This document shows, one piece after another, positions 11,373 to 28,220 of a DNA stretch of 64,000 nucleotides (the first letter of the stretch is position 1; each line of letters starts with the position of its first letter). Source of the DNA: an uncultured virus (IMG/VR IMGVR_UViG_3300030116_006045) (lineage: Duplodnaviria; Heunggongvirae; Uroviricota; Caudoviricetes); IMG/VR virus record IMGVR_UViG_3300030116_006045, positions 1 to 64,000 of that record. One strand, written 5' to 3'. The position numbers and the translations under genes were made by a program. The notes under the pieces were generated by a model that had not been told where the DNA came from, made no database searches, and saw nothing but the letters and a program-made list of their open reading frames with translations.

Positions 11373-11623
11373 TCTTCTTCGCCCCCACGATTTACAAACG
11401 CTCCATGTTCCGGTAAAACATTGTCGTATTTAGCAATTTTTTCTTTCGTTTCTTTACTTAACGATGTCTTATGCCCACATAAAGGGCAGTTAGTAACAAG
11501 GAAAAACCCTTCTTTGTCAGAGCCAAATCCTATCCAAAACCCAGTAACAGGACAAGATCGAACTCTACATCGAGCTTCAGCACCCCATATGAAAATCATA
11601 CGTTGTGGATCATATTTCCTCAT
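11369..11623 (-). CDS. Small Cys-rich (CPxCG) hypothetical protein
   Basis: CRVRSC and CPLCG motifs; ATGA-coupled to neighbours. Confidence 0.55.
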   Translation of the reverse strand: MRKYDPQRMIFIWGAEARCRVRSCPVTGFWIGFGSDKEGFFLVTNCPLCGHKTSLSKETKEKIAKYDNVLPEHGAFVNRGGEEE

Positions 11624-12934: not shown

Positions 12935-13117
12935 TCAACCCTGTTTATTTTTATCCTTATTTACACTAATATCGCGTGGCGGAGAGTAATCTCTATCAGC
13001 TACTCGAAATACGCCACAGTGCATATTGCCGTTGATTTTATGATTATTGTAACCACACACTCGCTTTATCCCACAATTAGAACAGACGCGCAAGCACTTT
13101 CGCGGCATCAAACCCAC
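12935..13117 (-). CDS. Small Cys-rich zinc-finger protein
   Basis: CSNCG...HCG; overlaps the MTase stop. Confidence 0.5.
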   Translation of the reverse strand: MGLMPRKCLRVCSNCGIKRVCGYNNHKINGNMHCGVFRVADRDYSPPRDISVNKDKNKQG

Positions 13118-14322
13118 TCCATATCTTCGATTTTTTCATTGACTTTGGATATAGAACGAATACGATCTGGAATAAACTCGGCGTATTCAGGATTAAGCTC
13201 GCACAGAATAGCTTCTCGACCATGAAGTAAGGCTACACCAGCTGTTGTCCCAGATCCACCGAACGGATCTAGGACTACTGAAGGAACGATAGGATGCTCA
13301 TCAAGAGGGAGATCACTATGATAGACCAACATTGTTCTAACCTTTTCTTTGGTGGCTGACTCAATCATCCTTCGTTTTACGTCGCTTGCGCCTTGAGCCA
13401 TAGCTGATTCGTAATCTTTCAAGTTAGATCCGCCGTAATTACCTTTTGAGTCAGCACCCCACCCAGTTTCAAGAAGTTCCTTTTGACTCATCTTAGGGGG
13501 TATAACCACTTCTTCTCTTACGAGCTTACCATGACACTCACAGTTAGGACGCCAGGTATCTAAGTTCTTGCCGGTGCTTGAAATGAACTGATCTGTACCA
13601 GCTCTGACCCAGGGTTCTCCGCAATCAGCACAGCATCCTTTAGCACTACTACCAGCTAACACGCATGGTTCTATCAGTTCCGGCGGATATACAGCAAAAT
13701 GCGCCTTTGGGAAGGATTGGGGGTTTATGTGCCAAACATCACGCTTATTCCTGTTGTTTTCACCTTCTTTGATAGCCTCATGATCGTAGAAGTAATGCTT
13801 GTTCTTAGTTAGCATAAAGATAAACTCATGCGATCTGGTGCATCTGTCTTTAACAGGCTCCGGCATACACTTCGGCTTCGCCCAAATAATATCCTGTCGA
13901 AGATACCATCCATCGGCTTGAAGTGCAAAAGCTACACGCCAGGGGATGCCAATGAGATCCTTCGGCTTGAAGTTATTACCTGTCTTACGCTTGAACGACT
14001 TGCCCCCATCCTCATGATAGTTATTGAGATGAGGTCGAAATCGTGAGTTTGTCTGATGACCTCCATTTGAACCGGCGTAAGAGTCGCCCAAGTTAAGCCA
14101 TAGAGTGCCTGTTGGTTTGAGGACACGCCACACTTCTTGAAATACTTGAACCATGTTTTCAATGAAAGCTTCGGGTGTTTCTTCTAACCCGATTTGATCG
14201 TCGTTTCCATAATCTCGAAGGCCGAAGTAAGGCGGTGATGTAACACAACAATCTACTGATTCATCAGGTAGCTCGGAGAGAGTTTCACGGCAGTCGCCTA
14301 AGAGGATCTTAACACCCTTCAT
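13108..14322 (-). CDS. Amino (N4-cytosine/N6-adenine) DNA methyltransferase, beta class
   Basis: TSPPY catalytic motif N-terminal and VLDPFGGSGTT SAM motif C-terminal; Cys-rich insert. SPPY suggests m4C. Confidence 0.9.
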   Translation of the reverse strand: MKGVKILLGDCRETLSELPDESVDCCVTSPPYFGLRDYGNDDQIGLEETPEAFIENMVQVFQEVWRVLKPTGTLWLNLGDSYAGSNGGHQTNSRFRPHLNNYHEDGGKSFKRKTGNNFKPKDLIGIPWRVAFALQADGWYLRQDIIWAKPKCMPEPVKDRCTRSHEFIFMLTKNKHYFYDHEAIKEGENNRNKRDVWHINPQSFPKAHFAVYPPELIEPCVLAGSSAKGCCADCGEPWVRAGTDQFISSTGKNLDTWRPNCECHGKLVREEVVIPPKMSQKELLETGWGADSKGNYGGSNLKDYESAMAQGASDVKRRMIESATKEKVRTMLVYHSDLPLDEHPIVPSVVLDPFGGSGTTAGVALLHGREAILCELNPEYAEFIPDRIRSISKVNEKIEDMEWV

Positions 14323-14465
14323 TCCTCTTCACCTTCCCATGAATATGTTTTCTTAGAGTAAGCAGCTGCATAACCCTCTCTCCATTTTTCGTAGCATTTC
14401 TCACACCAACCATGAATCGACATCATCATAACTTCATTGTCGCATCCTTCTGTCATGCATTTCAT
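14319..14465 (-). CDS. 48-aa Cys-rich microprotein (not in ORF track)
   Basis: Hand translation MKCMTEGCDNEV...WCEKCYEKW...; ATGA overlap with the MTase start. Confidence 0.6.
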   Translation of the reverse strand: MKCMTEGCDNEVMMMSIHGWCEKCYEKWREGYAAAYSKKTYSWEGEEE

Positions 14466-14482
14466 TATAACACGAAATGATC

Positions 14483-15847
14483 TCATAACCACTCAGCTAC
14501 TCCTTTCTTACCTATACCTTCAAACTCCAGATCCTCAACAGCCTGTATTCTTTCTCCAAGCCATCTCATAAGAGGCACAGCCATACTGTTACCCATAGCC
14601 TTGAAACGATGTCCATCTGGACAATCCTCTCTCGCCTTTCCTTTCCATTCAATTAGAGTATAGTTATCAGGAAATCCCTGGAGCCTTTCACACTCAATAG
14701 GTGTGAGGCGTCTAACTCTCATGGTAGATTCGATCATAGCTGTGTTTGTGCGTACATCACTCGCGGTCATATCGTGTGCTGTTAATGTACCAACGGCATC
14801 AGCTTCTCCCCAGGTTTCGTGATCGGTTTCCGATTGGGGTCTTCTTATTTTTCTAAATGGTATAGTTTCACCAGCTTGAGCTACAAACGGTTTCATACGA
14901 CTACCGGCTGACGCCATCAGACCCTTGACTTCTTCATTGAGAGAGATAACCTCATCTCGCTGATTAGCAAAGAACGACAGGACACGGGGTTCAGCCACAG
15001 CTGGTGAGGTCGGTACAGCTCCGTTAGCTTTCAACGTAGGAGCCACTTCTTCGTATATCCCATAGTTCTGTCCAAAAGTATGATCGAATGCGACCAGATC
15101 AGTGCCGTCTTTGTAATCCCTTGCTTTCAAAGTGCTAGCTGTCTCATCACAGGCGTAGTCACCAAAAGCACGTAATCTCGCACCTACTCCTTTTGCTGAG
15201 ACAAGTTCGCTTGATTGTCCAACGCCATTTGTAGTAGGTGGGGCAGTGTCTTGCCTCGACGGGACGCTCGGCGCAGAATCCCCCGACAAGCTCGTTCGCT
15301 CAAATAGTACCGCTGCGGGACGTCGCCAATCTCCAGAAGCGTGTCCGACAACAAACAAACGTCGGCGTCTTTGGGCCACTCCGAAGTAGCGAGCGTCCAA
15401 GATTCTCCAGGCGCAAGAATACCCGATCCGCTCCACTTCTGCGAGGAAGGTTCCAAAATCCCGTCCTTCGTCTGATGACAAGAGACCAGGGACGTTTTCA
15501 AAGAGAAACCACTCCGGTCGAATATCTCGAACAATGCCGAGATAGTGGAGGGCCAAGTTCCCACGCGGGTCATCCAATCCAAGTCGTTGTCCCGCGACTG
15601 AGAAGGATTGGCATGGTGATCCCCCGACGACGAGATCGAGCTGTCCGGCGTATTGTTTCCAGTCATGCTTAGTCACATCTCCCACATTCGGAACTGTCGG
15701 GTAGTGGTGAGCAAGGACTTCTGATGGAAACTCGTCGAACTCTGCGAAGATTTGAGGCTTCCAGCCGAGAGGTTCCCAAGCGACTGTTGCCGCTTCGACT
15801 CCGCTGAATAGGCTTGCGTATCGCACAAACAAACCCACTGGGACCAT
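14483..15847 (-). CDS. C5-cytosine DNA methyltransferase (probable start GTG at 15826)
   Basis: Motif I SLFSGVEA, IV GGSPCQSFS, VI ENVPG, VIII QRRRRLF, IX RRLTPIECERLQGFP and X MGNSMAVP. Confidence 0.93.
   Translation of the reverse strand: MVPVGLFVRYASLFSGVEAATVAWEPLGWKPQIFAEFDEFPSEVLAHHYPTVPNVGDVTKHDWKQYAGQLDLVVGGSPCQSFSVAGQRLGLDDPRGNLALHYLGIVRDIRPEWFLFENVPGLLSSDEGRDFGTFLAEVERIGYSCAWRILDARYFGVAQRRRRLFVVGHASGDWRRPAAVLFERTSLSGDSAPSVPSRQDTAPPTTNGVGQSSELVSAKGVGARLRAFGDYACDETASTLKARDYKDGTDLVAFDHTFGQNYGIYEEVAPTLKANGAVPTSPAVAEPRVLSFFANQRDEVISLNEEVKGLMASAGSRMKPFVAQAGETIPFRKIRRPQSETDHETWGEADAVGTLTAHDMTASDVRTNTAMIESTMRVRRLTPIECERLQGFPDNYTLIEWKGKAREDCPDGHRFKAMGNSMAVPLMRWLGERIQAVEDLEFEGIGKKGVAEWL
15184..15666 (-). 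CDS. Alternative-frame ORF nested in the C5-MTase (M.EcoHK31I beta-like polypeptide)
   Basis: 160-aa stop-free overlapping frame with an ATG start. Protein-like segment WSGSG...LSDTLLEIGDVPQRYYLSERACRGILRRA...LP recalls alt-frame beta subunits of two-component C5 MTases. Confidence 0.5.
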   Translation of the reverse strand: MTGNNTPDSSISSSGDHHANPSQSRDNDLDWMTRVGTWPSTISALFEIFDRSGFSLKTSLVSCHQTKDGILEPSSQKWSGSGILAPGESWTLATSEWPKDADVCLLSDTLLEIGDVPQRYYLSERACRGILRRASRRGKTLPHLLQMALDNQANLSQQKE

Positions 15848-15868
15848 CCATATAAATCATCTGTATAA

Positions 15869-17395
15869 TCAAAGCCACTCAGCCTCCGGTGGGAGTTCTA
15901 AGCTGGTTCCCATATCTGTTTCAACGAGATCAGCTTCGCTCCAATGGGCCATTCTTGCGGTAGCTATATCGGCATACTCTTGAGATATTTCACAGCCGAT
16001 AAAGTCGAATCCTTCAAGCAAAGCCGCAATACCTGTTGTTCCAGATCCTAAGAACGGATCGAGAATCTTACCTCCTGGTGGCGTTACTAACCTACACAAA
16101 TACCGCATCAGTGCGACAGGTTTCACAGTGGGGTGTATGTTCTTTCTAAGCTTATTACCTCGGTTACGTGGGTTATCTGAACCAACACCTGTCGTATCTT
16201 TTCTATCAGTAACTTGAGCTGATTCAAAATCTTCTAAACCAGCTTCTCTTTCTTTTCTTGAAGCCTTAGCACAATAAAAGAATCTTGCAGCTGACGTATC
16301 GACATCATCAAACCCTGGGTGTGCGCCCCCACCCATACCCTCTCCGTACACTTCGTTCTTATTGTTGGGTATGTATTCTTCGTGGTGCATATTCACAGCC
16401 GATGAGTGTTTGGTATCAGGGAACTCGTCTCGAACTTCATCACTACCATCATGGATCACATTCGCAGGGTATCTACCTGAAGGTGATCCTGTCTTTACAT
16501 TCAAAAAGAATCGAGATGCACCTCCTTGATCGTTAAACCCATGTGTTTCAGAACCTCCCTCCCCATGTATCTTACCTACCATCGTTAATTTCTCGCCTTC
16601 TTGCTTATTTTTTCGCACCGCATCACTACTTCTACTCGTACCACTTTGTTCATCAAGCATCTCACCAGCTTCTCCATCAAGAATAACATTAGCTGGAAAG
16701 CGACCATTTTCATGAGCTTCAGTTTCAGTTCCTTCTGATTCGCCCCAATGACCTTTCACTGATTTACGATTAGTATTCTTTGCATGATCCTCGCCCGCCT
16801 TTATTCTGCAATCGTCGATATTGATTGCGCCCGTATCATGTTTGAGGACATTGTTGGGTATATTATTTTCAGATATGGGCTTACGAGCTAACACGCATGG
16901 CTCATGAGCTGGTTTGAGAGCTGTTCCCCAACCTTCCCACTTCTTAGCGTCATCAGTAGCGGGTGCTGTAATCCTTGAGTCGTTACCTTTACCATTGAAA
17001 TCAATAGCACTGTTCTGTTCTCTATCGTTAGGGTTTGGGCCGAGATCTACTCTTTCAGCCCCTGCAGCTTTGTCTATTGCTTTTGATATATTGAGCGACT
17101 TAGGAAAACCAGATCCGTAAATCCACATAATTTGATCACGAATCTCAAAACCCGCATCTTCCACGTTGATAGCTAAACGATGATATGTTCGAGAACCAGC
17201 GAAAGCGATTAGATGACCACCAGGTTTGAGAACACGTAAGCACTGCGCCCAAAGCTCGCGTGAGGGAACATCGTAGTCCCATTTCTTACCCATAAAAGAA
17301 AGACCATACGGAGGATCTGTGACTATACTATCTACGCTGTTCTCTGGTAGCTCCTTAAGTCGCTCTAAAGAATCTCCAACCATTATCATAACCAT
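15869..17395 (-). CDS. Amino (probably N6-adenine) DNA methyltransferase, beta class
   Basis: TDPPY, HPTVKP and ILDPFLGSGTTG motifs; internal duplicated GR(F/Y)PANV...ASRFF segments. Confidence 0.9.
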   Translation of the reverse strand: MVMIMVGDSLERLKELPENSVDSIVTDPPYGLSFMGKKWDYDVPSRELWAQCLRVLKPGGHLIAFAGSRTYHRLAINVEDAGFEIRDQIMWIYGSGFPKSLNISKAIDKAAGAERVDLGPNPNDREQNSAIDFNGKGNDSRITAPATDDAKKWEGWGTALKPAHEPCVLARKPISENNIPNNVLKHDTGAINIDDCRIKAGEDHAKNTNRKSVKGHWGESEGTETEAHENGRFPANVILDGEAGEMLDEQSGTSRSSDAVRKNKQEGEKLTMVGKIHGEGGSETHGFNDQGGASRFFLNVKTGSPSGRYPANVIHDGSDEVRDEFPDTKHSSAVNMHHEEYIPNNKNEVYGEGMGGGAHPGFDDVDTSAARFFYCAKASRKEREAGLEDFESAQVTDRKDTTGVGSDNPRNRGNKLRKNIHPTVKPVALMRYLCRLVTPPGGKILDPFLGSGTTGIAALLEGFDFIGCEISQEYADIATARMAHWSEADLVETDMGTSLELPPEAEWL

Positions 17396-19614
17396 TGTGT
17401 ATCACTTACTCCGTTCATCGCATTTATTATTGGCTGCATCGACCATCCGACCACTGAATAAAGTGGCTCTACTTTTTTTACTACAAATCTTTCAACCATG
17501 ATACGCCATCCTATTTCGGCTATACCTTCTATTTCTTTGGGATCATCGAAAGCTATGTAGTCGCCTTGATTACTGATAGCTACCTTGAAGAAGTCGCCTT
17601 CTTTGTAGCCCTTACCGAGATGCCTGTTAGCCCAGGCTGCAGCCGCAGATGGACCGGATAGTGTTTCGTACTTGTCGAGATTCTTCTTGAGTTTGCCTTT
17701 CATCAGAACCTCACTTGGGTCCAGATCGCCACCCAATACATTCTCTATCAGCTGGCATAGCCTATCATCGACTAAGGACTGTTTCTCACCTTCAAGGATA
17801 GCATCAAGTGTAGTTTTCATAGATTTCTTCATTACGGGGGGCATACGTGCCTGTATAAGCTCGATACCCTTCACATACGTCTGTGGGTCATGGAACGCCC
17901 CATCTGTCCATAAAACGCGAGCAGCGTATCTATTCTTAGCATTGATGAAGAATGAATCGCACCACTTCTCGAACTCTACTACGATTGGGGCCATATCCTC
18001 GTTCAAGTCGGCACAAAGCTGGACACCGGCATCAGGTGTAGCCACATCAACCATAACAGAATCAGTGTGTCCATAGCGAACTTTATGGCCGCGAGCTTCG
18101 CATAGATCACGAAGAAGAAACAAAGTTTGTCTTGATGTAAAGGTGATTGCAGCTGCAATCTCAGGGTGATACAGACCATATCTACTGTCACCACATACAC
18201 CATACAGAGAAGCGACGAGAGTTTTGGTAGCGTGTTGCATAGCATCCCACCTGTGCTTGTTGTCAGGATCTGACTTCATCTTCGCCTTGTATTCATTACG
18301 AAGGTCAGTTAGTCGATCCATAGTGCGTACTAACAACCCCTTCTTCTCCTTACTGAATCGTGTTCCATTACCTATGTCGTCGCCATCTTCGCTAAGGGTG
18401 TCCCAGGATATATTGTGTAGTGCCGCGTTGCTATGATACATCGCCTTGATGTCCATAATACCGATGTGTCGATACACACCTGGTTCGGGTTCTTGAATAT
18501 CAGCACCTTCGTAGTCCACCTTATCGAACTGTGGTTTAGATGGGATTCTTTGTTTGAAATCGGGATCCCGTAAGAAAAGCTGAGTAGCCATCTTGGTAAT
18601 ATGAGGGGTGTCTCTGAAACGGATCTGGGTAAGGAACGACAGTGTAATGTAATGTTCGCTTACATTGAGATATTCGTCCAGCTTAGGCATCAGACGCACA
18701 TCTTGTCGATTGTAGTCCACATAGGTAGCAAAGTCAGTGTAGTAAGTATCGTGGCCGTCCGGTAGCTCCGTCTTGCGTTCTTTTAGTGCCTCCCACGCTA
18801 CATCGTCGAGCTTCTTTGAAGCAAGCTGACCATGCTTTAGCACCCACAGTTTCTCGAAACCAACCATAAGATCGAAGCAAAGACGACCAGGGATGGGTTG
18901 ATCCCAATCCCCATAGGAATAAACGTGTTTCTTGAGCGGCGATAGTGTTCTTGGATCTAGCCCAACCACCTTCATCCTCTTAGCTAACTGAGAAATATCA
19001 GCTCCTTGTAGATACCAACCAATCAACATATCTGGGTCACATCTACTCATATGATTTACGAAATGTTCGATCATGTCTCTTTCGTTATCGAAGGCTAATA
19101 AAACGGGGTACATCTCAATAAACTGATGACCTTCAGGGTGTTTCTTACAACCGAGTGACTCATGCTTCCCTGCAGGAAGTTCATCAGATATGGCCCATGT
19201 GAACATAGCTTCCTCGTAGGAATCCCATACTGATATGATAGTGATCTCACCACTCTCGGTTTTCCACTCCATATCAAGATACCACTTACGATACTGATAG
19301 TAAGGGAAGGGATTGACCCTATCAGCAAGAACACGATTCACCCAGGGTATGTTTGCTTCCCATGTCTGTACTTGTTTCTTAAGCTGGTGTGGCTCGTCGG
19401 TATCACCGAATGTGAGCTTTACCAGATCCTCACCATACACACCTTCGTAACCATCCCTTTTTCTTATGGCTTTGAAAGGCATTCGGGATAAGTCCTTTTT
19501 CTGTACGAAACAGTAAGGGTGATGATCGTTGATGTGTGTTTCTATTCTCGACAATGTGTCTGGGTTGCGATGGCGCACTATTACAGAACGTCCTCTTGTG
19601 CGGTCGGCAATCAT
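17386..19614 (-). CDS. polB: Family B DNA polymerase with 3'-5' exonuclease
   Basis: ExoI LDMEW, ExoIII YNRQD, and polymerase motifs DIKAMYHS, KTLVASLYG, YGHTDS and KNRY. Confidence 0.95.
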   Translation of the reverse strand: MIADRTRGRSVIVRHRNPDTLSRIETHINDHHPYCFVQKKDLSRMPFKAIRKRDGYEGVYGEDLVKLTFGDTDEPHQLKKQVQTWEANIPWVNRVLADRVNPFPYYQYRKWYLDMEWKTESGEITIISVWDSYEEAMFTWAISDELPAGKHESLGCKKHPEGHQFIEMYPVLLAFDNERDMIEHFVNHMSRCDPDMLIGWYLQGADISQLAKRMKVVGLDPRTLSPLKKHVYSYGDWDQPIPGRLCFDLMVGFEKLWVLKHGQLASKKLDDVAWEALKERKTELPDGHDTYYTDFATYVDYNRQDVRLMPKLDEYLNVSEHYITLSFLTQIRFRDTPHITKMATQLFLRDPDFKQRIPSKPQFDKVDYEGADIQEPEPGVYRHIGIMDIKAMYHSNAALHNISWDTLSEDGDDIGNGTRFSKEKKGLLVRTMDRLTDLRNEYKAKMKSDPDNKHRWDAMQHATKTLVASLYGVCGDSRYGLYHPEIAAAITFTSRQTLFLLRDLCEARGHKVRYGHTDSVMVDVATPDAGVQLCADLNEDMAPIVVEFEKWCDSFFINAKNRYAARVLWTDGAFHDPQTYVKGIELIQARMPPVMKKSMKTTLDAILEGEKQSLVDDRLCQLIENVLGGDLDPSEVLMKGKLKKNLDKYETLSGPSAAAAWANRHLGKGYKEGDFFKVAISNQGDYIAFDDPKEIEGIAEIGWRIMVERFVVKKVEPLYSVVGWSMQPIINAMNGVSDTQWL

Positions 19615-19617
19615 AAT

Positions 19618-19788
19618 TTACGCATTGTAAAGTTTGTTATAAGGATTGCTTCTATTCAAGAAACAACCCTTACACATTACGATTGGGAACTCATCACAGT
19701 CGATAACCACCAAAGCACCGAGGGGGATAGGGTCAAAGCAAATCTCACACGACCAGGAGCCATCAGAAATCTGCTTGTCAGTCGTCAC
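19618..19788 (-). CDS. 56-aa Cys-rich microprotein (not in ORF track)
   Basis: Hand translation from GTG: MTTDKQ...CEICFDP...MCKGCF...; fills the gap before polB. Confidence 0.5.
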   Translation of the reverse strand: MTTDKQISDGSWSCEICFDPIPLGALVVIDCDEFPIVMCKGCFLNRSNPYNKLYNA

Positions 19789-20101
19789 TTCTTCTGCCTC
19801 TCTTACGACGGGGGATATTGTGTTTATCCACCCAATACTGAATCGTCATAGCACTTACACCAAACACCAATGCAAGCTCGGCCATCGTTTTGTTCTTTGT
19901 AACATAATGCTCGAATAACCAAGCTGGTTCTTGATATCTAGGTTGATTCGGTTGTTCACCGAACTTAGCTAAAAGGAATACATCTGAGCCACATCTGTCA
20001 CAGTGCTGTACGATCCGTGACTCCTGTTCAGGGATCTCAAGCTGTTTTTCAAAGAAAACGTGCGCCCCACAGTTCGGACAAGCGACTCTCATCAGACCCA
20101 C
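19778..20101 (-). CDS. Zinc-ribbon plus HTH DNA-binding protein
   Basis: CPNCG/CDRCG followed by an HTH (TMAELALVFGVSAMTIQYWVDKHNIPRR). Confidence 0.75.
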   Translation of the reverse strand: MGLMRVACPNCGAHVFFEKQLEIPEQESRIVQHCDRCGSDVFLLAKFGEQPNQPRYQEPAWLFEHYVTKNKTMAELALVFGVSAMTIQYWVDKHNIPRRKRGRRSDD

Positions 20102-20270
20102 CTATACAGTATCTCTTTTATTAAAGAACGCCCTTTGGGTTCACGCTGGCTCAAGAGCCTTTTCACCACATCTGGGGCATATTCTCTTGATAGCTTTAGC
20201 GCGAAGCATACGCTGAGTAGCCCAACCACAGGCTCTACACCTTGCAGCTTCCCACTCAAGACCCAATGGA

Positions 20271-21074
20271 TCACCGTAACAACGAAGCCTGAAAGACCCA
20301 TCCAGATCCACCACAGTCGATTATCAAACGGACACCCTGTTCCTCAGCTCGGAAATCAATGAAATGCAAATCAACATTACCTGTCATTTCCTTGAGAACA
20401 GAATCCAACCCACCCTCGAACACTACTTCTATCACGGGGAAATCTGTTTCTTCGTTTTCCCACTCTGTTGTAGTGTGTCCTTTGAGTTCATCACCCACCG
20501 ATAGGGTGATTTTACCTTCGCCCAGGCTAAAGGTGTAGCGATTTAGCTTCTGTCCATTCATGGTATCGCAACGTAGGGCTTCAAACAGCTCCGTTGCATC
20601 TACTGTCCAAGACAGCATAGCCTCACGCTTATCTCCAGATCGTAGTGTGTACGACCCTTTGGGATCAATCTGTTCAGCCAGCTGAACACTCTTACCTTCC
20701 CACTCACCAATAGTATCAGTGCTATGTGGAAAGGCCAAACCACCGAGATCAGATAGTAGCGTCGTCTGTTTAGAGCCGGACTTGACTCGCAGCTTACTAC
20801 CATCCAGGGAGAGTGTAACACTCGATCCGTGAAACTTCAAGACACCTAACAACCGATCAATATCAGGAATGGGTATCTCCCCAGTTCCATGAGCGGGAAC
20901 TCGGAAGTGAGATAGGCTCGTCTTACCATCTCGCACCAAGCTCGTCGTAGTGCATGAGTCGTTCTCAAACCTTAGAATTGTAGCAAGCACCTGGTCTTGA
21001 GGCTTACCAGCTACAACCTGCGGTCGCTTAGTCAAATTAAGTAGTCGTTGTAACGATGCGTTATTTATGTTCAT
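20271..21074 (-). CDS. Putative DNA sliding clamp (PCNA-like)
   Basis: 267 aa with two repeats of the beta-alpha-beta-beta-beta clamp pattern; lies between polB and RPA/RFC genes. Confidence 0.65.
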   Translation of the reverse strand: MNINNASLQRLLNLTKRPQVVAGKPQDQVLATILRFENDSCTTTSLVRDGKTSLSHFRVPAHGTGEIPIPDIDRLLGVLKFHGSSVTLSLDGSKLRVKSGSKQTTLLSDLGGLAFPHSTDTIGEWEGKSVQLAEQIDPKGSYTLRSGDKREAMLSWTVDATELFEALRCDTMNGQKLNRYTFSLGEGKITLSVGDELKGHTTTEWENEETDFPVIEVVFEGGLDSVLKEMTGNVDLHFIDFRAEEQGVRLIIDCGGSGWVFQASLLR

Positions 21075-21078
21075 TTTT

Positions 21079-21267
21079 TCACCTGTTCTGTCTAATCTTA
21101 AGACAGGATTTACAATTTACGTGCGATCCATCATGGATCACAACATTATCATACAGACGGGCCAAGCCCCTGCAGTCGAGAATGTACACGGAACCGAAGC
21201 GTTTCACGCGATGCCTAACATCACTTGAGCCAAGTGAAGCCACCTGACACTTCGCTGGTAAGCTCAC
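21079..21267 (-). CDS. Small Cys/His-rich protein
   Basis: VNCKSC motif; coupled to neighbours. Confidence 0.45.
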   Translation of the reverse strand: MSLPAKCQVASLGSSDVRHRVKRFGSVYILDCRGLARLYDNVVIHDGSHVNCKSCLKIRQNR

Positions 21268-21488
21268 CCACTCACCTCAAACTCAGCGACGTTATCACGC
21301 TTGGCGACATAACGAATAATAGATTCAAACTGGGCCTGAAGCTGACAGACATCCATCATTTCCTTAGATAGTAGCTCCATTTCACCCTCGAATGTGGCGA
21401 CGGAATCTTCCAGATCCTTTACGGTTTTAGTTAGGGCCTCAAGCATCTGTGTTAGTGAGTCGATTAGATCTAATGTAGCATCTCCCAC
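21264..21488 (-). CDS. Small coiled-coil protein
   Basis: Heptad repeats. Confidence 0.5.
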   Translation of the reverse strand: MGDATLDLIDSLTQMLEALTKTVKDLEDSVATFEGEMELLSKEMMDVCQLQAQFESIIRYVAKRDNVAEFEVSG

Positions 21489-21492
21489 GTGA

Positions 21493-22467
21493 TCACCATC
21501 GTAGTTCAGGTAGCCCTTTGAAGTCCACTTTACCGTTCTTAACAGATAGAATAACTCGATCTTGACCTACCAAATCCATACCCTTACCCTTGATTTCTTC
21601 GATGCGAGCTTTGATGACCCACTCATCGGCATCCAGGGAGCTGTCGGCATACACACCAGCTGAACTGTCGCCCTTCTTCTGATAGCGACCCATGAAAAGC
21701 TGTTGGCTTACAATACGCTGTGTACCATCAACCCAATCAGGGCGTTCGCCAACCTTCATCAGACCCTTAGACCCGTTTCCTAGATCCGCGTATTGTTTAT
21801 CGTCTTTGAGATGGAATGTGAAATACACCTTATCCACAGGTAGCCCGTGAAGTCGTGTGATAGTGTCTCTGAATAGCTGGTTCCTGGTGCGCCACTCCTT
21901 CTGATTGAAAGAGTCGCCTTCTTCCTTGATCACACCGCGAGATAGTAAAACATCAGTCATGGCGAACTCACACCACTTCATGTAAGTAGAACCACCATCG
22001 AAGATTACAGCTGCGTAATCATCAGGGTTAGCTGTTATTTCCTCAGCCATTAGATTCACGAAGATTCTCGTCTTATCGATCAAAGCTTTCCAATTGACAC
22101 TCATATCTTCATGGAAGATAGAATCGTCTGTCTCATCGAATATGTTTAGAATCATGATATTGGGATCATCTCCGTACACATGAAACACGGTCTGAGAAGC
22201 ACTGTTGTCGAAGTCGAAGATGATTACCTTACGACCCTTCTCAATGTCGTCGTCGTTGCGAGCTAAGTGTAGAGCAAGACCCGTCTTGAGTGTGTTTTCA
22301 CGACCAACAAGAGCCATACGTTGCTGTGGCTTTGCCGTGTGCTTCTTCTCGAATAGTCCACGATAGTAATCAATACCATAGCTGGTAGATACCTCTTCGC
22401 CTTTGGTCTGTCCAGATCCTGCAGCCTTGCCGCCGGAACCCCCCCAGGGCGAACTCAAGCGTCCCAC
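21493..22467 (-). CDS. RecA-like/Sak4-like (AAA_24) ATPase, recombination protein
   Basis: Degenerate Walker A GRENTLKT, IIFDFD, and Walker B AVIFDG; adjacent to RPA. Confidence 0.7.
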   Translation of the reverse strand: MGRLSSPWGGSGGKAAGSGQTKGEEVSTSYGIDYYRGLFEKKHTAKPQQRMALVGRENTLKTGLALHLARNDDDIEKGRKVIIFDFDNSASQTVFHVYGDDPNIMILNIFDETDDSIFHEDMSVNWKALIDKTRIFVNLMAEEITANPDDYAAVIFDGGSTYMKWCEFAMTDVLLSRGVIKEEGDSFNQKEWRTRNQLFRDTITRLHGLPVDKVYFTFHLKDDKQYADLGNGSKGLMKVGERPDWVDGTQRIVSQQLFMGRYQKKGDSSAGVYADSSLDADEWVIKARIEEIKGKGMDLVGQDRVILSVKNGKVDFKGLPELRW

Positions 22468-23687
22468 CCACCATTGTCTCCATCAGAGGTAGGGAGATCG
22501 GAAGCGATAGCATCACAGATGAACCAACCTGTGCAGTCCAAACGAGGCTCGTTGTCCCGACTCATCCAAGCGCGACCTACAAGAGCTATTTCGGAACCAA
22601 CGCCGAAATTGATCAGGTCTTCTTGTTCACCTGGAACATACACATCAACAGCTGGTGCGGTAGATGTAATGTCGAGATCACCGACAGTAATGATGTAGCC
22701 GCCCTTCTCACGCGGATCAATGTGTACAACCTCACCATGAACAGCACACAGCTTATCCCAACGCTCATCGGTATCAGCCCACTTAGCGATATGCTCAGGA
22801 AGCAAATCGAAAGAAGGCAAGAAATCACCGTCAGGCCATGTGCCATCAACGAGCTTCGGAATCAAACCAGCAGGGCCGTTCTCACCAATAACGAGTGGAG
22901 ATACAGCAAAGATAGAAGCAACAGCATCGTCAGCTGTGAACTTAGTAACACCAACCTTACCATAACCCACACCGTTACGACCCATACGAACAGGGATGCG
23001 ACCAGGCACGAAGGTAGGATAGATTGTCTCCGCCAAATCACCCTCGGTCTTGACGGTGATTAGCTGAACATCATCATCACCATTCTTGCGTCCGAGGAAT
23101 AAAGATTCACGGCTTGGTTCAGACAAACGGCGAGCGCGACCGAAACGAGGATTGGGATCTCCCGAAGGATAGACAGGTGTTGTGTTGTTCTCGATGATCT
23201 GGAACCATGTAGTATCGTCCAGCTGTTCACAGAACTTAGGGAGTTCACTGATAGTAAGTTCAGCGTTGTCCTCAGAAAAAGCCCCTGTCTTGAAAGATGG
23301 ATTAACAGTATGAGTGTAAGATCCATCGAGATTGTCTTGAATCAAAGTGATACGACCCTGGGACACCAAAGCAACACGCGCATCATCCGATAGTGGTGTA
23401 AGAGTGTCTTTCATCTTCCTGTAAGCGAGCTTTGCCCAATCTTTGTAACGTGGAACACTTACGAACATACCTTCAAGGATTTCAGCACCGGAGCGCGAAA
23501 GCTTCTGAGCCTCGGCCTTAAGCTGGCGTCCGGCTACTCTTATTGCGAGTACGTCGCATTCGTCTTTCGTCTTACCGGAAGCTACCCACGCATTCTGATT
23601 TTCCGCGAGGACTGCATCCACGCGATCTTTCAGCTGGTCGGTCGAGATTCCTATGTTCTTTGCTACTGTGTTCATTAGGTCGGTCAT
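22455..23687 (-). CDS. Single-stranded DNA-binding protein (RPA-like, OB folds)
   Basis: C-terminal OB fold (VHGEVVHID...ITVGD...VGSEIALVG) and an acidic tail; next to the recombinase-like ATPase. Confidence 0.65.
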   Translation of the reverse strand: MTDLMNTVAKNIGISTDQLKDRVDAVLAENQNAWVASGKTKDECDVLAIRVAGRQLKAEAQKLSRSGAEILEGMFVSVPRYKDWAKLAYRKMKDTLTPLSDDARVALVSQGRITLIQDNLDGSYTHTVNPSFKTGAFSEDNAELTISELPKFCEQLDDTTWFQIIENNTTPVYPSGDPNPRFGRARRLSEPSRESLFLGRKNGDDDVQLITVKTEGDLAETIYPTFVPGRIPVRMGRNGVGYGKVGVTKFTADDAVASIFAVSPLVIGENGPAGLIPKLVDGTWPDGDFLPSFDLLPEHIAKWADTDERWDKLCAVHGEVVHIDPREKGGYIITVGDLDITSTAPAVDVYVPGEQEDLINFGVGSEIALVGRAWMSRDNEPRLDCTGWFICDAIASDLPTSDGDNGGWDA

Positions 23688-23744
23688 TGTTGATACCCAT
23701 CTGTCGCACAGACCACACCCATATAAGTGTTCTGATAAAACAAA

Positions 23745-24017
23745 TCAAGGCGTATATGACGGCGATTCGTCGCCCCCTTCTATCTGTCCGTGTAGCAAAG
23801 CATGAGCCATTGAGCTGTCGTATGCGACAGAACCAGGACCGCAACACACCCACTCACATTCATCACAAGCAGCTATGATCACCATCTCATTGAATAGGGT
23901 AACACCAGGCAACCTAAGAATAGGTATGCACTCACCAGGTAGCCACTCATTCCCTTCAGGATCAATATAAGACATAGCAAAGGTTTCTTCCTCGAACATC
24001 AAATCAATTATATCCAT
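23745..24017 (-). CDS. Hypothetical Zn-binding protein
   Basis: CDEC...H..H; similar to 34563-34859 (YIDP.G..W....IP.L.L..GT..NE.VI...C..C). Confidence 0.55.
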   Translation of the reverse strand: MDIIDLMFEEETFAMSYIDPEGNEWLPGECIPILRLPGVTLFNEMVIIAACDECEWVCCGPGSVAYDSSMAHALLHGQIEGGDESPSYTP

Positions 24018-24796
24018 TTGACTCTTGATTCTTTTTCCGACTTGAGTAATTTATGTCGTTGCGCCCACTCGATAGCATAAGTCATACAATTATTACACGC
24101 TAAGGGGGGATCTTCTCTTTTTTCACATAACGAGCATTTTTTCCCCGTTTTATGTGCTAGATATCGGGCTTCTACACTCCATGCAAATGAATCGGCACTG
24201 TGAAGGAATCTACCGTACTTATCTAACCCACGAATCTTTACCCCAAAACCATGCAGCTTCAGTCCCTTTCGATAGAACCTTTCTACAATATCAGCTATTT
24301 CATCTTTCGATTGTCTCCTACAAACCGAACCCAACCCTACCAGATCCTCCTTTACTAAATCCACACCAGCTTTAGCATACATATCAAAACAATTCTCGTA
24401 ATCCTCCAAAGACCAACCTTGAAGAACAGGGATAAATGGGAGATCAGGAGCTGTTGAACGCAAGTAAAGAAAATTATCTACTGTTCGACGTTGATGTTCT
24501 TCGACGGATAAACCGGTCTTTTCTATGATCCAGGGTTCAACCATCCAATCTTGAGGTGCAGCCCACTGAAGACCACCCCATGACTGATACCGCCTAACAG
24601 ATTCTATGTACGAATCAGCATCTATTGTCCATGTGCCATGTAAGTTCAGCTCGGTGAAACCGCCTGAATCCAAAGCCCATGTGCTTATTGCGTTACGTTC
24701 TTTCTTTGTGGTCATCAAGGTTCGATGACTAATGAATAAAGGATGCTTTGTTCTTTCAAGCCAAACAGCTTTGTGGCATCCAATGAAAAACCGCAT
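24008..24796 (-). CDS. dpdA: DpdA-like (TGT-fold) deazaguanine DNA transglycosylase
   Basis: TGT-family motifs ALDSGGF, APQDWM.EP, IPVLQGW, VGLGSVC, LHGFGVK and SADSFAW; C-terminal Cys cluster. Confidence 0.75.
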   Translation of the reverse strand: MRFFIGCHKAVWLERTKHPLFISHRTLMTTKKERNAISTWALDSGGFTELNLHGTWTIDADSYIESVRRYQSWGGLQWAAPQDWMVEPWIIEKTGLSVEEHQRRTVDNFLYLRSTAPDLPFIPVLQGWSLEDYENCFDMYAKAGVDLVKEDLVGLGSVCRRQSKDEIADIVERFYRKGLKLHGFGVKIRGLDKYGRFLHSADSFAWSVEARYLAHKTGKKCSLCEKREDPPLACNNCMTYAIEWAQRHKLLKSEKESRVKWI

Positions 24797-24797
24797 A

Positions 24798-25415
24798 CTA
24801 TCGATCTCCTAAGTGATATACTTCTTCTCGAATTAGCTTCATTCGTTTTCTTTTTTCAGAAGGACTACCCAAAATAAAAATAAAACGATGTTTTGATTCT
24901 CTCCTTACAGGTTTCCAACCAAACGATCTAGCTTGCTCCTTTGTGATATTTTCACCACACTGTCGAGGATGTCTTAAACGAACACCGTCATAATAGAACG
25001 TGGTTTTAGAGGTCATGCCGGAATAAATAGCATTTGAAGCGCGATAGATCGTCCCATTGTGACCTTCGGTCGAATCCGCATAACTGACCAACCCCCAAAT
25101 ATCCGGTCTTACAACACGACACAATTTGAAACATCTTGAAATAAACCACGATTCCGTATTCTTAGGTGTGTCGTCGATCAACACTAAACGATGTAGTTCT
25201 TTTACGTGATCCTTAAGCTCAGGTCCGAAGATATATGAGCGTACGGCTTCTGAACCAGGAGTAGCTATTAGCATAGCACCAATCAACCTCCCATCATCGT
25301 AAAGACCGAAGCATGGGTTAGGGCTTCTCATCGCTCCGTGTGAGTAATGATGCTTAATTACGAACTCTTTACCAACCTTAGCTGAAATATGCCTTACTTC
25401 GTAGGTTTCTTTCAT
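24798..25415 (-). CDS. mom: Mom-family (GNAT-fold) adenine-modification enzyme
   Basis: Motifs FVIKHHYS, FGLY..GRLIG, ELHRL...PKNTESWFIS and VSYAD..GH.GTIYRASN.IY.G are characteristic of phage Mu Mom relatives. Confidence 0.8.
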   Translation of the reverse strand: MKETYEVRHISAKVGKEFVIKHHYSHGAMRSPNPCFGLYDDGRLIGAMLIATPGSEAVRSYIFGPELKDHVKELHRLVLIDDTPKNTESWFISRCFKLCRVVRPDIWGLVSYADSTEGHNGTIYRASNAIYSGMTSKTTFYYDGVRLRHPRQCGENITKEQARSFGWKPVRRESKHRFIFILGSPSEKRKRMKLIREEVYHLGDR

Positions 25416-25416
25416 G

Positions 25417-26325
25417 CTACTGACCTTTCAATAATCTACAAAAGTTCCATGTCACGATCTGGGAATCAACACCATCAATGAGATCCCTTTCAGATTGAAT
25501 CGCTGCGTCAATCACACGTAACTTAGATTTCGATCCGGCTGGTGTATTTACAGCGTAAGCAAACACAGCATGAATACGCTCGCGTACAACCCCACCGTTT
25601 TTCATCAGTTCATCAATAGCATCCTCGATAGCTCCTTCGGTGAAGGCCAGCTTGAGAACGCGCTCAGGTGAGAAGTCAGGGGCTTCAAGCCCATGAATAA
25701 AACGACGACGTTCATTCTCACCCAAATGAGCTGCTGTCTGCAAAGCACCGATAGCATTCCGTAGATCACCTTTGTGCTTACCGGCTATTACTCGAATAGC
25801 GTGGTCGTCCACTTCAACACCTTCCAACGCCGCAATCTTAGCCAAGCGAATCTCAGCGATTTCAGCTGGGATAGGTTTGAATGTGCGTAAGGCGCATCGT
25901 GATTGAATCCAGGGAGATACCCTGGAGAGATCATTACAAGTTAGTATGAAGTAACCTTGAGCATCCTCGATAACACCTTTCAAGGCATCCTGAGCTTGAG
26001 GCGTTAATCGATCTGCCTCGTCGAGAAGAAACATAGTTTCCCATATTCCTATTCGAGACATAGGAGCTACGTCCTCTTCTATGAACTCAATACCTCTCTG
26101 TCTCTTCGATGAAGCATTGAACTTATGCAATTGTAGATTCAGCTTTTCAGCTAATATGTACGCGAGAGTCGTCTTACCTGTGCCTGGTTCGGGCGAGTAG
26201 AACAGATAGTGTTGCATCGGGGCATCACCCTCGATGATTGAACGGAACTCTTCGATGATTCCGTCCTGTCCGACAACATCATCCAGATCCGTTGGCCTGT
26301 GCTTTTCCCACCAAATCTCCTTCAT
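25417..26325 (-). CDS. rfcS: Replication factor C small subunit (clamp loader)
   Basis: WWEKHRP..LDDVVGQ, PGTGKTT, FNASSKR.RGI, LLDEADRLT..AQDAL, IQSRC and GDLRNAI. Start reset to the MKEIWWEK ATG at 26325. Confidence 0.93.
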   Translation of the reverse strand: MKEIWWEKHRPTDLDDVVGQDGIIEEFRSIIEGDAPMQHYLFYSPEPGTGKTTLAYILAEKLNLQLHKFNASSKRQRGIEFIEEDVAPMSRIGIWETMFLLDEADRLTPQAQDALKGVIEDAQGYFILTCNDLSRVSPWIQSRCALRTFKPIPAEIAEIRLAKIAALEGVEVDDHAIRVIAGKHKGDLRNAIGALQTAAHLGENERRRFIHGLEAPDFSPERVLKLAFTEGAIEDAIDELMKNGGVVRERIHAVFAYAVNTPAGSKSKLRVIDAAIQSERDLIDGVDSQIVTWNFCRLLKGQ

Positions 26326-26329
26326 CGAA

Positions 26330-26584
26330 TCAATCCCTATCGTAATAAATAGAACGACGCATAGCTCGTTGGTCGTCTGCTTCAGCACAACATTCCCAAC
26401 AGATACGGTCATCATTTAGTTCACTTCTGTAATCTGAATACTCTTCACAAATGCGGCACTTCAACCAGGCACAGTCGAGGCAAGAAGGACCGCCGGTTAG
26501 CGGATTAACAGCTTGATCACAATCAGGATGAGCGCAGACATAATCTTCGGCTGAATAGCCATGTTCGCATTCACTCATCTTCAT
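26330..26584 (-). CDS. Cys-rich hypothetical protein
   Basis: Multiple CxxC pairs. Confidence 0.55.
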   Translation of the reverse strand: MKMSECEHGYSAEDYVCAHPDCDQAVNPLTGGPSCLDCAWLKCRICEEYSDYRSELNDDRICWECCAEADDQRAMRRSIYYDRD

Positions 26585-26879
26585 CAGCTGGCCTTTGTGC
26601 TTCTTCTACCATTAGTTCCTGGAACTCTTTGTTTTCTTTTTCTATCATCTTCACGACGTCCAGGCAATTATCCATCTTCCTGTAAAGCAGCCAAGCCTGA
26701 TCCTTCAATTCCTTGATGCTTTCCAGATCCATAGTGATTAGCTGAACAGTAGGCAAGTTCATGCAATTCGATAGTGTCGGTTTATATCCCATACTCAGAC
26801 CCCCATGTAGTATTCTTCCCAACGAAGCTGGCTGATGTAAGCGTGTGTGTCGGCTTCCATCTGATTGTTGTATTGGCAA
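26571..26879 (-). CDS. Hypothetical coiled-coil protein (true start probably at MGYKP)
   Basis: Operon packing and heptads. Confidence 0.45.
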   Translation of the reverse strand: MPIQQSDGSRHTRLHQPASLGRILHGGLSMGYKPTLSNCMNLPTVQLITMDLESIKELKDQAWLLYRKMDNCLDVVKMIEKENKEFQELMVEEAQRPADEDE

Positions 26880-27124
26880 GGCTCACACATATCATCAATC
26901 TCTAACTTCATCATCCCTCGGACACGCTCAATCGTCTGAGCTGTCTTACTGGTAATCGGCTGGCGGTCATCACCAATGGGTAGTTCACAATCTACGCATC
27001 GGATAGTCGGTCTTGTAATGAAACGAATTACACTTCGCTTCTTGGTTGTCGGTCGGAGTCCCATAAATAAAGGTAGGGAAGTTCCCTTATTTATACCCTT
27101 ACATTGTTCTAATTCCGCGTTCAC
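26795..27124 (-). CDS. Hypothetical Zn-finger protein (start uncertain)
   Basis: CVDC...CEPC. Confidence 0.45.
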   Translation of the reverse strand: MNAELEQCKGINKGTSLPLFMGLRPTTKKRSVIRFITRPTIRCVDCELPIGDDRQPITSKTAQTIERVRGMMKLEIDDMCEPCQYNNQMEADTHAYISQLRWEEYYMGV

Positions 27125-27503
27125 AGAATAAACAGTGATCTATTTCAGGTGGGATTAAACGACGCATACCACACGCTGTACACTGAGTCATTTTCCTACA
27201 TACAGATTTAGGTTGATGAGCTGCAGGTGTTGTAAAGTAAATGTCTCCTTCTCCCAGGATGAGATTTCTATTTACATCATAGAGGGTTTGCTGTTCCCAT
27301 CCTCGATGAGTTTGCACTTTTGTTTTACCGACATCCTCGAATTGTTTGGATCTGGAAAGTAAAGAAACGATGCGAGTGTGGGAAGCTTGGTTTCTAGGGT
27401 TGGCTGTTTGAAGACGATCCCGTAATTGATCGACAGTCATGGGTCCATTAACAAAAAGTTCCTTTATGGCTGCTTGCCTAACTCTTGTATTGTGGCTGCC
27501 CAC
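27099..27503 (-). CDS. Winged-HTH protein with C-terminal Zn ribbon
   Basis: GPMTVDQLRDRL...IVSLLSRSKQFEDVG and CTAC/CLFC; TTGA box exactly 31 nt upstream of the GTG. Confidence 0.65.
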   Translation of the reverse strand: MGSHNTRVRQAAIKELFVNGPMTVDQLRDRLQTANPRNQASHTRIVSLLSRSKQFEDVGKTKVQTHRGWEQQTLYDVNRNLILGEGDIYFTTPAAHQPKSVCRKMTQCTACGMRRLIPPEIDHCLFCERGIRTM

Positions 27504-27545
27504 GCCAAGTGATCGTGTGCAGTAGATAAATCAAGGTTCGTCCTT

Positions 27546-28220
27546 TTACAACCATTCAGTTAGGGATTCTTTACGCTTCTTTACCCCCTTCGGCAACCCT
27601 CCTGGGTCCACTGATCTCAAATGATTAGCCACATCAGGAGCTAATCGAATTAGTTCTTCGGTGTAATAATCAGATCGACGGAAACCATGTGGTTGTTCAT
27701 CGTTATCTTTGTCCAGCTTACCTCTAACTGGTCTTTCAGGGCTGGACTTTACAGAAAATGCAAAGATAGCGTGAATGAAATCATCCGAAAGCTGGAAGGA
27801 CGATTTAGCTATGCGACGAGCTGTTTCTATGTCGTCGGGGCGATTCATTCTCCATATCGACAGTGAAAGCGGAATCGGCAATTTAGCGATTTCATTGTGC
27901 GCCCTGTTTCGATCATCCCACCGGAGAAGTGCTTCTATCGGTCGTCTAAAATCCTCACCGCCACGCGGTAAGCTCCGGTGTTCAATTACCAGATCGCGTG
28001 ACTTATCTGTAAGCTTAGGTGCTTTCTTGAGGATTACAACCAAACGATATGATACGATAGGCGACCATTCTATGATGTCCTTTTCTGTGAACTTAGATGT
28101 ATGTAAGATGTATGTTGTCTTAGGTGCTGTCGGGGGGCTGGTCAGCTGACTGTGCATAACTATGTAATCACCCTGTCGAAACTCAGAATCGTCGCCAGCT
28201 AAAATTATCACACCCATCAA
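27546..28220 (-). CDS. Hypothetical protein, possibly a degenerate clamp-loader (RFC-L-like) subunit
   Basis: Near rfcS; ends in a basic stretch plus PIP-like KESLTEWL; no Walker A. Confidence 0.4.
   Translation of the reverse strand: MMGVIILAGDDSEFRQGDYIVMHSQLTSPPTAPKTTYILHTSKFTEKDIIEWSPIVSYRLVVILKKAPKLTDKSRDLVIEHRSLPRGGEDFRRPIEALLRWDDRNRAHNEIAKLPIPLSLSIWRMNRPDDIETARRIAKSSFQLSDDFIHAIFAFSVKSSPERPVRGKLDKDNDEQPHGFRRSDYYTEELIRLAPDVANHLRSVDPGGLPKGVKKRKESLTEWL

Follow-up and report, generated by a model that had tools for sequence, protein, structure and literature searches.

A W-[LIV] C-terminus shared by the DNA polymerase and DNA-modifying enzymes of an uncultured tailed virus, a candidate clamp-docking tag

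Results

A common ending in the replication and modification module

The DNA studied here is a stretch of 64,000 nucleotides (the window) from an uncultured marine virus of the Caudoviricetes (positions 1 to 64,000 of the IMG/VR record IMGVR_UViG_3300030116_006045), and our subject is a short C-terminal ending, tryptophan followed by leucine, isoleucine or valine (W-[LIV], the tail), that recurs on its proteins of DNA replication and DNA modification. The record comprises 64,951 bases, is rated 100% complete by CheckV and is covered almost entirely by the window. A long replication and modification module occupies roughly 9-31 kb on the minus strand, and a structural module with terminase, portal and tail tube genes lies on the plus strand from about 47 kb on (47-64 kb).

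Six established carriers of the ending are encoded in the former module, all on the minus strand. The family-B DNA polymerase (PolB; 17386..19614, 742 residues; Pfam DNA_pol_B at 3e-30 plus an exonuclease domain) terminates with ...GVSDTQWL, its W-L codons occupying 17389-17394. Two N6/N4 DNA methyltransferases of 508 residues (15869..17395; N6_N4_Mtase, 2.6e-33) and 404 residues (13108..14322; N6_N4_Mtase, 9.4e-44) end in ...LPPEAEWL and ...KIEDMEWV, and between them lies a C5 cytosine DNA methyltransferase of 454 residues (14483..15847; DNA_methylase, 1.1e-56) with the end ...KKGVAEWL. A member of the 7-deazaguanine DNA transglycosylase family, DpdA (24008..24796, 262 residues; Pfam DpdA, 4.4e-74), stops with ...KESRVKWI, and a conserved protein of 224 residues without Pfam or PHROG family (27546..28220) with ...KKRKESLTEWL. 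These are the six endings quoted in an earlier note on this DNA; all are present where that note had placed them and Pfam confirms the families it had named (two N6_N4_Mtase, C-5 DNA_methylase, DNA_pol_B, DpdA). Its description of six unrelated proteins is slightly loose, two of them being N6/N4 methyltransferases.

Open reading frames (ORFs) were called mechanically (longest non-overlapping, greedy, at least 50 residues), which leaves start codons uncertain, while the C-termini are fixed by stop codons. Seven of the 97 ORFs in the window end in W-[LIV], compared with 0.33 expected from the window's own W-[LIV] dipeptide frequency of 0.0034 (binomial p 5.5e-8). The shared ending is real and lies far beyond chance. 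The seventh case, orf69 (20092..20301, minus strand, 69 residues, ...LYRWV), is treated as a doubtful gene because it has no homologue in the 80 related loci described below and because its stop is overlapped by an ATG with an AGGTGG immediately before it; for this ORF an explanation by a ribosome-binding site or gene overlap is plausible. Among the plus-strand ORFs of the 47-64 kb structural module none ends in W-[LIV], as had been claimed for the structural proteins.

The ending had also been described as sitting on a short tail beyond the catalytic fold. This holds for DpdA, the C5 enzyme and the 508-residue methyltransferase, whose Pfam matches end at residues 248/262, 435/454 and 479/508, 14-29 residues short of the C-terminus. 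It is less exact for the 404-residue methyltransferase, in which the best-scoring of two reported Pfam stretches stops at 234/404.

The tail is conserved by protein family

Relatives were collected by a PolB-seeded scan of IMG/VR, which yielded 80 loci, mostly on contigs of about 60-68 kb, with PolB 45-65% identical. Window and loci together gave 1500 greedily chosen ORFs, and, unless stated otherwise, the following counts refer to this set. W[LIV] terminates 168 of the 1500 chosen ORFs (11.2%) and 17 of 4211 shadow ORFs (0.40%), which were taken as a composition control from the non-chosen frames of the same DNA.

Within blast families W[LIVMF] ends 76 of 77 PolB proteins and W[LIVF] all 38 homologues of the 224-residue protein. 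The last 9 residues occur in 52 distinct versions in PolB and 28 in the 224-residue family; the distinct W-ending tails counted over the last 12 residues number 52 and 29, respectively. The same kind of comparison found the tail in both DpdA proteins, in both relatives of the C5 methyltransferase (W[LIVMF]), in five of five relatives of the 404-residue methyltransferase (W[LV]) and in four of six relatives of the 508-residue enzyme, the other two ending in ...DLF and ...ALF. Of two Mom proteins one is tailed: the sole relative found of the window's Mom, a protein of 295 residues in locus L060, ends in ...DDFLWI. Nucleases of the XPF type (ERCC4-HhH) bear a ...W[VL] end in 10/43 relatives. The sliding clamp (0/74) and the RFC-like ATPase (0/44) never end in W[LIVMF].

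A census by enzyme class, made with phmmer and Pfam identities, extends these figures. Tails were counted on 18 of 21 N6/N4 methyltransferases, two of the three exceptions ending in ...DLF or ...ALF, on five of seven C5 methyltransferases, both exceptions being ORFs of 61-65 residues, on all five PAPS-reductase-like proteins, on the single GNAT enzyme and on one of five pyridoxal phosphate (PLP)-dependent (PALP) enzymes. The earlier note had proposed to ask whether orthologues keep the ending, and for PolB, the 224-residue protein, DpdA and the N6/N4 methyltransferases the answer is affirmative. The tail tracks protein family, not gene position, and it is confined to proteins of DNA transactions.

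Some tailed enzymes of the relatives are absent from the window. They comprise a 391-residue GNAT acetyltransferase with a P-loop-like N-terminus (L039:5442-6617) as well as PAPS-reductase-like proteins of about 270 residues and one PLP-dependent enzyme (L058:3317-4138, L041:4688-5500, L051:6801-7643). The GNAT, PAPS-reductase-like and PLP-dependent enzymes are candidates for new DNA-modification activities.

Overlapping gene starts do not explain the tail

In packed operons a TGG and its following codon could be kept as a nucleotide by-product, that is as the overlap with the ATG or ribosome-binding site of the next gene, and the earlier note had considered that such overlaps might account for the W codon entirely. 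In the window, an ATG does lie across or right next to the end of PolB, DpdA, the 404-residue methyltransferase, the C5 methyltransferase (through a 57-residue ORF at 14319-14492) and orf69, the AGGTGG of which looks like a ribosome-binding site, but gaps of 21 and 42 nucleotides follow the 508-residue methyltransferase and the 224-residue protein. The situation is similar across the loci: A-TGG or an ATG overlapping the stop is found in 50 of 76 PolB genes and 33 of 38 genes for the 224-residue protein, only 5/38 of the latter being free of an ATG at the W codon or stop, yet 26/76 PolB genes without any such ATG keep W-[LIV] nonetheless. Tryptophan is invariant, while the last residue is specified in the 76 PolB genes by 12 different L/I/V/F codons (10 different codons in the 224-residue family) and followed by all three stops (TGA 41, TAA 21, TAG 14). 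Overlapping starts do not explain the tail because this variety of final codons and stops occurs. They may add some constraint in individual genes. They cannot account for the L/I/V class of the last residue, for the conserved preferences upstream of the terminal pair (E/Q at -2, a hydrophobic residue at -3) or for the family specificity, given that the equally tightly packed clamp and RFC-like genes lack the tail altogether and that shadow ORFs of the same DNA show it so rarely. The explanation of the W codon by overlap alone fails; conservation acts at the level of the protein.

Two small minus-strand ORFs belong to these junctions. Their start ATGs overlap the stops of the 404-residue methyltransferase (12935-13117, 60 residues) and the C5 methyltransferase (14319-14492, 57 residues), and the 60-residue ORF has a cysteine-rich, zinc-ribbon-like stretch at its N-terminus.

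The tail is an add-on with PIP-like replacements in other viruses

DpdA and the C5 methyltransferase were compared with their 120 best database homologues. For DpdA, W-[LI] terminates 14 of these, which hold ranks 1-13 and 17 and so belong to the closest; the other 106, including proteins named from Streptomyces and Kitasatospora, are tailless. The alignment shows the tail as some 15 extra residues that follow the conserved ...YALxWR helix. The homologues of the C5 enzyme are more varied. Forty end in W-[LIVMF], 18 in Qxx[LIVM]FxF (of the form Qxx[LI]FDF), 24 in Qxx(x)[LIVM]W(G) and two in QPTMDS[FL]FD, a canonical QxxMxx[FL]F box with a terminal D, while 36 are tailless and stop soon after the W[IL]G core motif. 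The median number of residues past the last W[IL]G motif is 28 in tail-bearing proteins as against 14 in the others. Distant homologues therefore lack the tail, as the earlier note had suggested might be found. It is a lineage-specific C-terminal add-on, gained in modular fashion and replaced elsewhere by other tails that resemble PCNA-interacting peptides (PIPs).

The C5 homologues with alternative PIP-like ends come from other marine viral contigs (P0121-P0240; L082, L083, L088-L092, L101, L102). One of these, L102, also encodes a 395-residue protein without Pfam family that ends in ...KTIFDF; the methyltransferase of this locus ends in ...QQMTLW.

The PIP box is defined as QXXhXXaa, with h for L, I or M and a for an aromatic residue (PMC4929162). 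Canonical Qxx[LIVM]xxW[LIVMF] boxes are present in six of 29 distinct tails of the 224-residue family (e.g. ...QSKLDGWL, ...QPTLDGWI) and in five of 29 distinct W-ending tails of modification enzymes (e.g. ...QKTLAEWL on N6/N4 methyltransferases of about 310 residues). They occupy the same position as the reduced versions, to which they appear to be equivalent. The tails of the window itself contain no PIP glutamine. KESLTEWL and KKGVAEWL had been said to fit the box except for Q; this is correct for KESLTEWL, whereas KKGVAEWL in addition has V at the h position. Among deposited genomes of phages and archaeal viruses the best match to PolB, at 24% identity, is the enzyme of the haloarchaeal virus HRTV-11, whose last residues, QSGLGAFI, form a canonical terminal PIP. 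Taken as a whole, the earlier proposal is supported in part: its reading of the ending as a PIP-like tag is strengthened by the canonical boxes of the relatives, the HRTV-11 terminus and the predicted clamp fold described below.

Modification enzymes follow the ending of their polymerase

The methyltransferase comparison led to a locus (L092) with a different PolB lineage. Its PolB ends in ...KSLW, the adjacent C5 methyltransferase in ...QKKLW and the next N6/N4 methyltransferase in ...QKLLW. Together with eleven further loci (L163-L173), L092 forms a second lineage, whose PolB proteins are 80-87% identical among themselves and end in ...SLW (...RPxSLW) in all nine complete copies. Nine of ten N6/N4 methyltransferases and the only C5 methyltransferase likewise end in ...LW or ...LFDW, the methyltransferase ends including ...QKKLW, ...QKLLW, ...EQRTLFDW and ...QKSLFDW. 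The two endings are nearly exclusive: none of 218 second-lineage ORFs terminates with W[LIVMF] and just one of the 1500 first-lineage ORFs with [LIVM]W. In both lineages the modification enzymes carry whichever ending their own polymerase has, as a shared, co-evolving receptor predicts.

A clamp homologue was not found within the stretches of the second lineage examined; an RFC-like ATPase is present in six loci. The covariation is drawn from one second lineage, since a search for PolB (PF00136) in five incomplete IMG/VR records of the Qxx[LI]FDF and QxxTLW methyltransferase lineages found none.

Clamp, clamp loader and the 224-residue protein

The earlier note had credited the virus with a clamp of its own at 20271-21074 (minus strand), and fold modelling of the 267-residue tailless protein encoded there supports this. 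The AlphaFold model, built from 32 aligned homologues, has a predicted local distance difference test score (pLDDT) of 92.9 and a predicted template modelling score (pTM) of 0.89. Exhaustive alignment with VIA-align ranks two-domain clamps first: PCNA from Leishmania and A. fulgidus (6j0j_A, 1rwz_A) at Z 19.2 with a root mean square deviation (rmsd) of 2.9-3.3 over 216-218 residues, and T4 gp45 (6drt_A) at Z 18.8 with rmsd 2.6 over 216 residues. The top Foldseek matches are bacterial beta clamps with bound peptides (E 2.5e-12). The model predicts a clamp fold of the PCNA/gp45 type with two repeated domains and the size of a trimer subunit. By sequence there is no Pfam match and no match to a PDB sequence below E 0.1, and PHROG 947 ('processivity factor') is reached at 7.1e-6; the predicted identity is decided by the fold search. 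Including that of the window, the clamp family has 74 members, its gene being present in 73 of the 80 PolB loci.

The neighbors of the clamp in the module are a tailless RFC-small-subunit-like AAA+ clamp-loader ATPase of 332 residues (25417..26415, minus strand; Pfam AAA, DNA_pol3_delta2 and RFC lid; PHROG 168 'clamp loader', 2.6e-39) and, two small genes further on, the 224-residue protein. For the latter the model is less certain (pLDDT 82.5, pTM 0.43), and its last 17 or so residues, which bear the tail, are coil (last block pLDDT 54). Like the extension of about 15 residues in DpdA, this places the tail on a flexible terminal segment. Foldseek gave no match at E <=0.001, the best hits at E 0.016 being RFC subunits. 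The VIA-align matches lean towards clamp-loader subunits but are weak: CTF18 (Z 6.9, rmsd 14), 3u5z_A of the T4 clamp loader (Z 6.1, with rmsd 2.9 across 74 residues), RFC1 (Z 5.5) and E. coli delta (Z 5.0) all fall short of Z 8, under which the program advises caution. To judge from its length of 186 residues, 3u5z_A is presumably gp62. The best ESM Atlas score, 0.76, stays under the lead threshold of that resource. We treat it as no more than a lead that the 224-residue protein could be an analogue of the clamp-loader large subunit and its tail a PIP like that of RFC-L.

Further features of the window

DpdA and a Mom-family DNA-modification protein (24798..25415, minus strand, 205 residues; Pfam Mom, 1.1e-34) lie side by side and adjoin the RFC-like gene (24008-26415, minus strand). 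The window's Mom is tailless (...HLGDR). No Pfam match to genes of preQ0 synthesis (QueC/D/E, FolE) was obtained among the window ORFs scanned, and the virus may therefore depend on preQ0 from its host. A short XPF-type nuclease with ERCC4 and HhH domains (9315..10031, minus strand, 238 residues; Pfam ERCC4, 1.2e-9, and HHH_5) ends in ...EFILD and is likewise tailless. On the opposite strand, at the edge of the replication module, lies a giant ORF of 2783 residues (977-9328, plus strand) without Pfam match, whose blast family has 41 members, including the window's own, among the ORFs of the related loci. No tRNA genes were found in the window, and at positions 63605-63614 the record has 10 consecutive N.

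Three other proteins of the minus-strand module show conserved tryptophan-containing ends that are distinct from W-[LIV]. A 410-residue protein without Pfam or PHROG family (22455-23687) has an acidic C-terminus, ...GGWDA, and 53 of 57 homologues have tryptophan within their last three residues (...GWD, ...GWDA, ...GW); its end is similar to the acidic C-terminal hubs of single-stranded-DNA-binding proteins. The family of an AAA_24 ATPase (21493-22467) ends in ...GLPxLKW or ...W-D/E in 50 of 65 cases, and that of a PD-(D/E)XK nuclease (11620-12450) in ...G-E-W or similar in 41 of 60. This suggests a wider set of tail-mediated contacts within the replisome.

Discussion

A clamp-docking tag on replication and modification enzymes

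In our judgment x-W-[LIV]-COOH is probably a reduced, strictly C-terminal, PIP-like clamp-docking tag that is common to the replisome and to the DNA-modifying enzymes of these viruses. The peptide is presented at the protein's end by a linker that is flexible and often basic. It is found on PolB, on the 224-residue protein, on part of the XPF-type nucleases and on nearly all DNA-modifying enzymes: N6/N4 and C5 methyltransferases, DpdA, some Mom proteins, PAPS-reductase-like proteins and the GNAT enzyme. We infer that it most likely docks in the hydrophobic pocket for clients on the virus's own, presumably trimeric clamp of the PCNA/gp45 type; PCNA of the host possibly serves as well. Polymerase and modification enzymes could sit on the same or on successive clamps, each ring offering three pockets, and methylation, 7-deazaguanine exchange and other marks would be added to newly made viral DNA at the fork or immediately behind it. 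The coupling of modification to replication is inferred as well, as is any selective benefit.

A more far-reaching version is conceivable, but we hold it to be doubtful. Here the tail would be a private docking code: a diverged clamp would read x-W-[LIV]-COOH, the sister lineage ...L-W-COOH, and captured enzymes would be fitted with the appropriate ending. The clamps on viral forks would act as a sequence-independent marker of self that confines a toolbelt of modifications (m6A/m4C, m5C, 7-deazaguanine, Mom-type and possibly sulfur-based) to nascent viral DNA and keeps the enzymes off the host chromosome. The sparing of host DNA, also considered in the earlier note, is speculation.

Alternative receptors and functions

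The tail could be a true docking peptide for another receptor, such as host PCNA, the 410-residue ...GWD protein, the AAA_24 ATPase or a helicase or primase, but we consider this improbable. Conserved tryptophan ends on the 410-residue protein, the AAA_24 ATPase and the PD-(D/E)XK nuclease point to further tail-mediated contacts, and the spacing of the PolB tail is not that of a canonical PIP. A clamp is nevertheless the better candidate in view of the carriers, which include classical clamp clients of the same genomes, namely PolB (76/77) and the XPF-type nuclease (10/43); archaeal XPF binds PCNA through its C-terminus. Canonical Qxx[LIVM]xxW[LIV] versions at the same position, the textbook Qxx[LIVM]xx[FL]F box on homologous methyltransferases elsewhere and the presence of the clamp gene in 73 of 80 PolB loci and the window point in the same direction.

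We regard a function unrelated to docking as very improbable. The C-terminus might, for instance, govern stability or degradation and so control when the enzymes are present, or it might direct them into the capsid. The tail is short and terminal, and short hydrophobic C-terminal tags do act as degrons in bacteria and archaea, but one would not look for a degron or a packaging tag on 76 of 77 replicative polymerases, nor for one that grades into canonical PIP boxes, and the structural proteins of the window are tailless throughout. The by-product of overlapping gene starts, finally, is largely refuted by the ATG-free PolB genes and by the diversity of their final codons and stops, and we give it hardly any credence.

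Several observations nonetheless weigh against a tag for the viral clamp. Many of the IMG/VR loci are close relatives, and raw counts therefore overstate independence. Not all modification-type proteins are tailed, exceptions being the window's Mom, four of five PALP enzymes and three of 21 N6/N4 methyltransferases, and among XPF-like nucleases the tail is confined to the minority given above. Only one of 52 distinct W-ending PolB tails is a canonical Qxx[LIVM]xxW[LIVMF] box; the conserved hydrophobic residues of PolB stand at -3 and -6 instead of the -4 of the PIP, and any binding geometry is therefore not that of the textbook. The different tryptophan ends of other replication proteins make another hub conceivable, and host PCNA may be the receptor in place of the viral clamp. 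Comparison of the 224-residue protein with the RFC-like ATPase family returned an hhalign probability of 0.3%, and overlapping ATGs accompany the tail in the 50/76 PolB genes and 33/38 genes of the 224-residue family already mentioned.

If enzymes of at least six Pfam families are indeed tethered to the clamp, protection against host restriction would be built into replication itself. A tag of two residues could then point to DNA-modifying enzymes still hidden in viral dark matter, and the pair of tail and clamp would offer a simple system for how one ring shares three pockets among its clients. Peptides and a single recombinant protein would suffice for a direct test.

Comparison with known systems

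The label magrovirus, used in the earlier note, is not established for this virus. According to the sections of the two sources used here, magroviruses have genomes of about 100 kb that encode DNA polymerase, clamp, RFC, AEP primase, MCM, a RadA-like ATPase and a single-stranded-DNA-binding protein (PMC5434244, PMC11706807). The present record, of 64,951 bases, encodes DNA polymerase, clamp, RFC-like ATPase and an AAA_24 ATPase, but Pfam found neither MCM nor primase among the window ORFs.

Recruitment to clamps by terminal peptides is textbook knowledge, and viral DNA hypermodification is usually pictured as the work of free enzymes that act on DNA or on nucleotides before incorporation. A full-text search, with subscription journals outside its scope, found no description of DNA-modification enzymes tethered to a clamp in viruses of archaea or bacteria. 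The novelty here would be that unrelated DNA-modifying enzymes, as an entire set, are given the docking tag of the viral polymerase.

The closest parallel is provided by the archaeal clients of PCNA. In the parts of PMC4929162 drawn on here, C-terminal PIPs are listed for archaeal PolB, PolD, RFC, Fen1, RNase H2, NucS and NreA. As in the virus, the peptide sits at the extreme C-terminus on a linker, has an aromatic and hydrophobic end and is borne by PolB (PMC4929162). Some viral relatives moreover have the full Qxx[LIVM]xxW[LIV], the HRTV-11 PolB ends in QSGLGAFI, and the viral clamp is predicted to have the PCNA fold. The systems differ in that most viral tails are reduced to [hydrophobic]-x-W-[LIV], without Q and the hydrophobic residue at -4, and in that the clamp is encoded by the virus. 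The clients differ as well: methyltransferases, DpdA, Mom and PAPS-reductase-like proteins do not appear among the clients listed in those parts of PMC4929162, the sole methyltransferase mentioned there being one that co-purified with NucS.

T4 and RB69, with gp45, are likewise tailed viruses with a two-domain clamp and an RFC-like loader of their own and, as proposed here, with short terminal docking peptides. In T4, gp43, gp33 and gp55 dock on gp45 by C-terminal tails, and the gp45 structure matched by our clamp model (6drt_A) is entitled 'GP45 complexed with recognition peptide of ligase'; the full-text literature search turned up no account of DNA-modifying enzymes of T4 that bind to this clamp. 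Eukaryotic DNMT1 is recruited to nascent DNA via a PIP-type contact with PCNA and carries out maintenance methylation at the fork. It resembles the proposed arrangement in that a methyltransferase is brought in through a clamp contact of this type, but it is a single cellular enzyme with an internal N-terminal motif, whereas the virus would employ up to four or five enzymes with a C-terminal tag identical to that of its polymerase. Bacterial beta clamps, finally, recognize motifs of the QL[SD]LF type and share with the proposed system the principle of one hub pocket that serves many short linear motifs; the viral clamp differs by its two predicted domains (267 residues) instead of three, and the motif by its end in W-[LIV].

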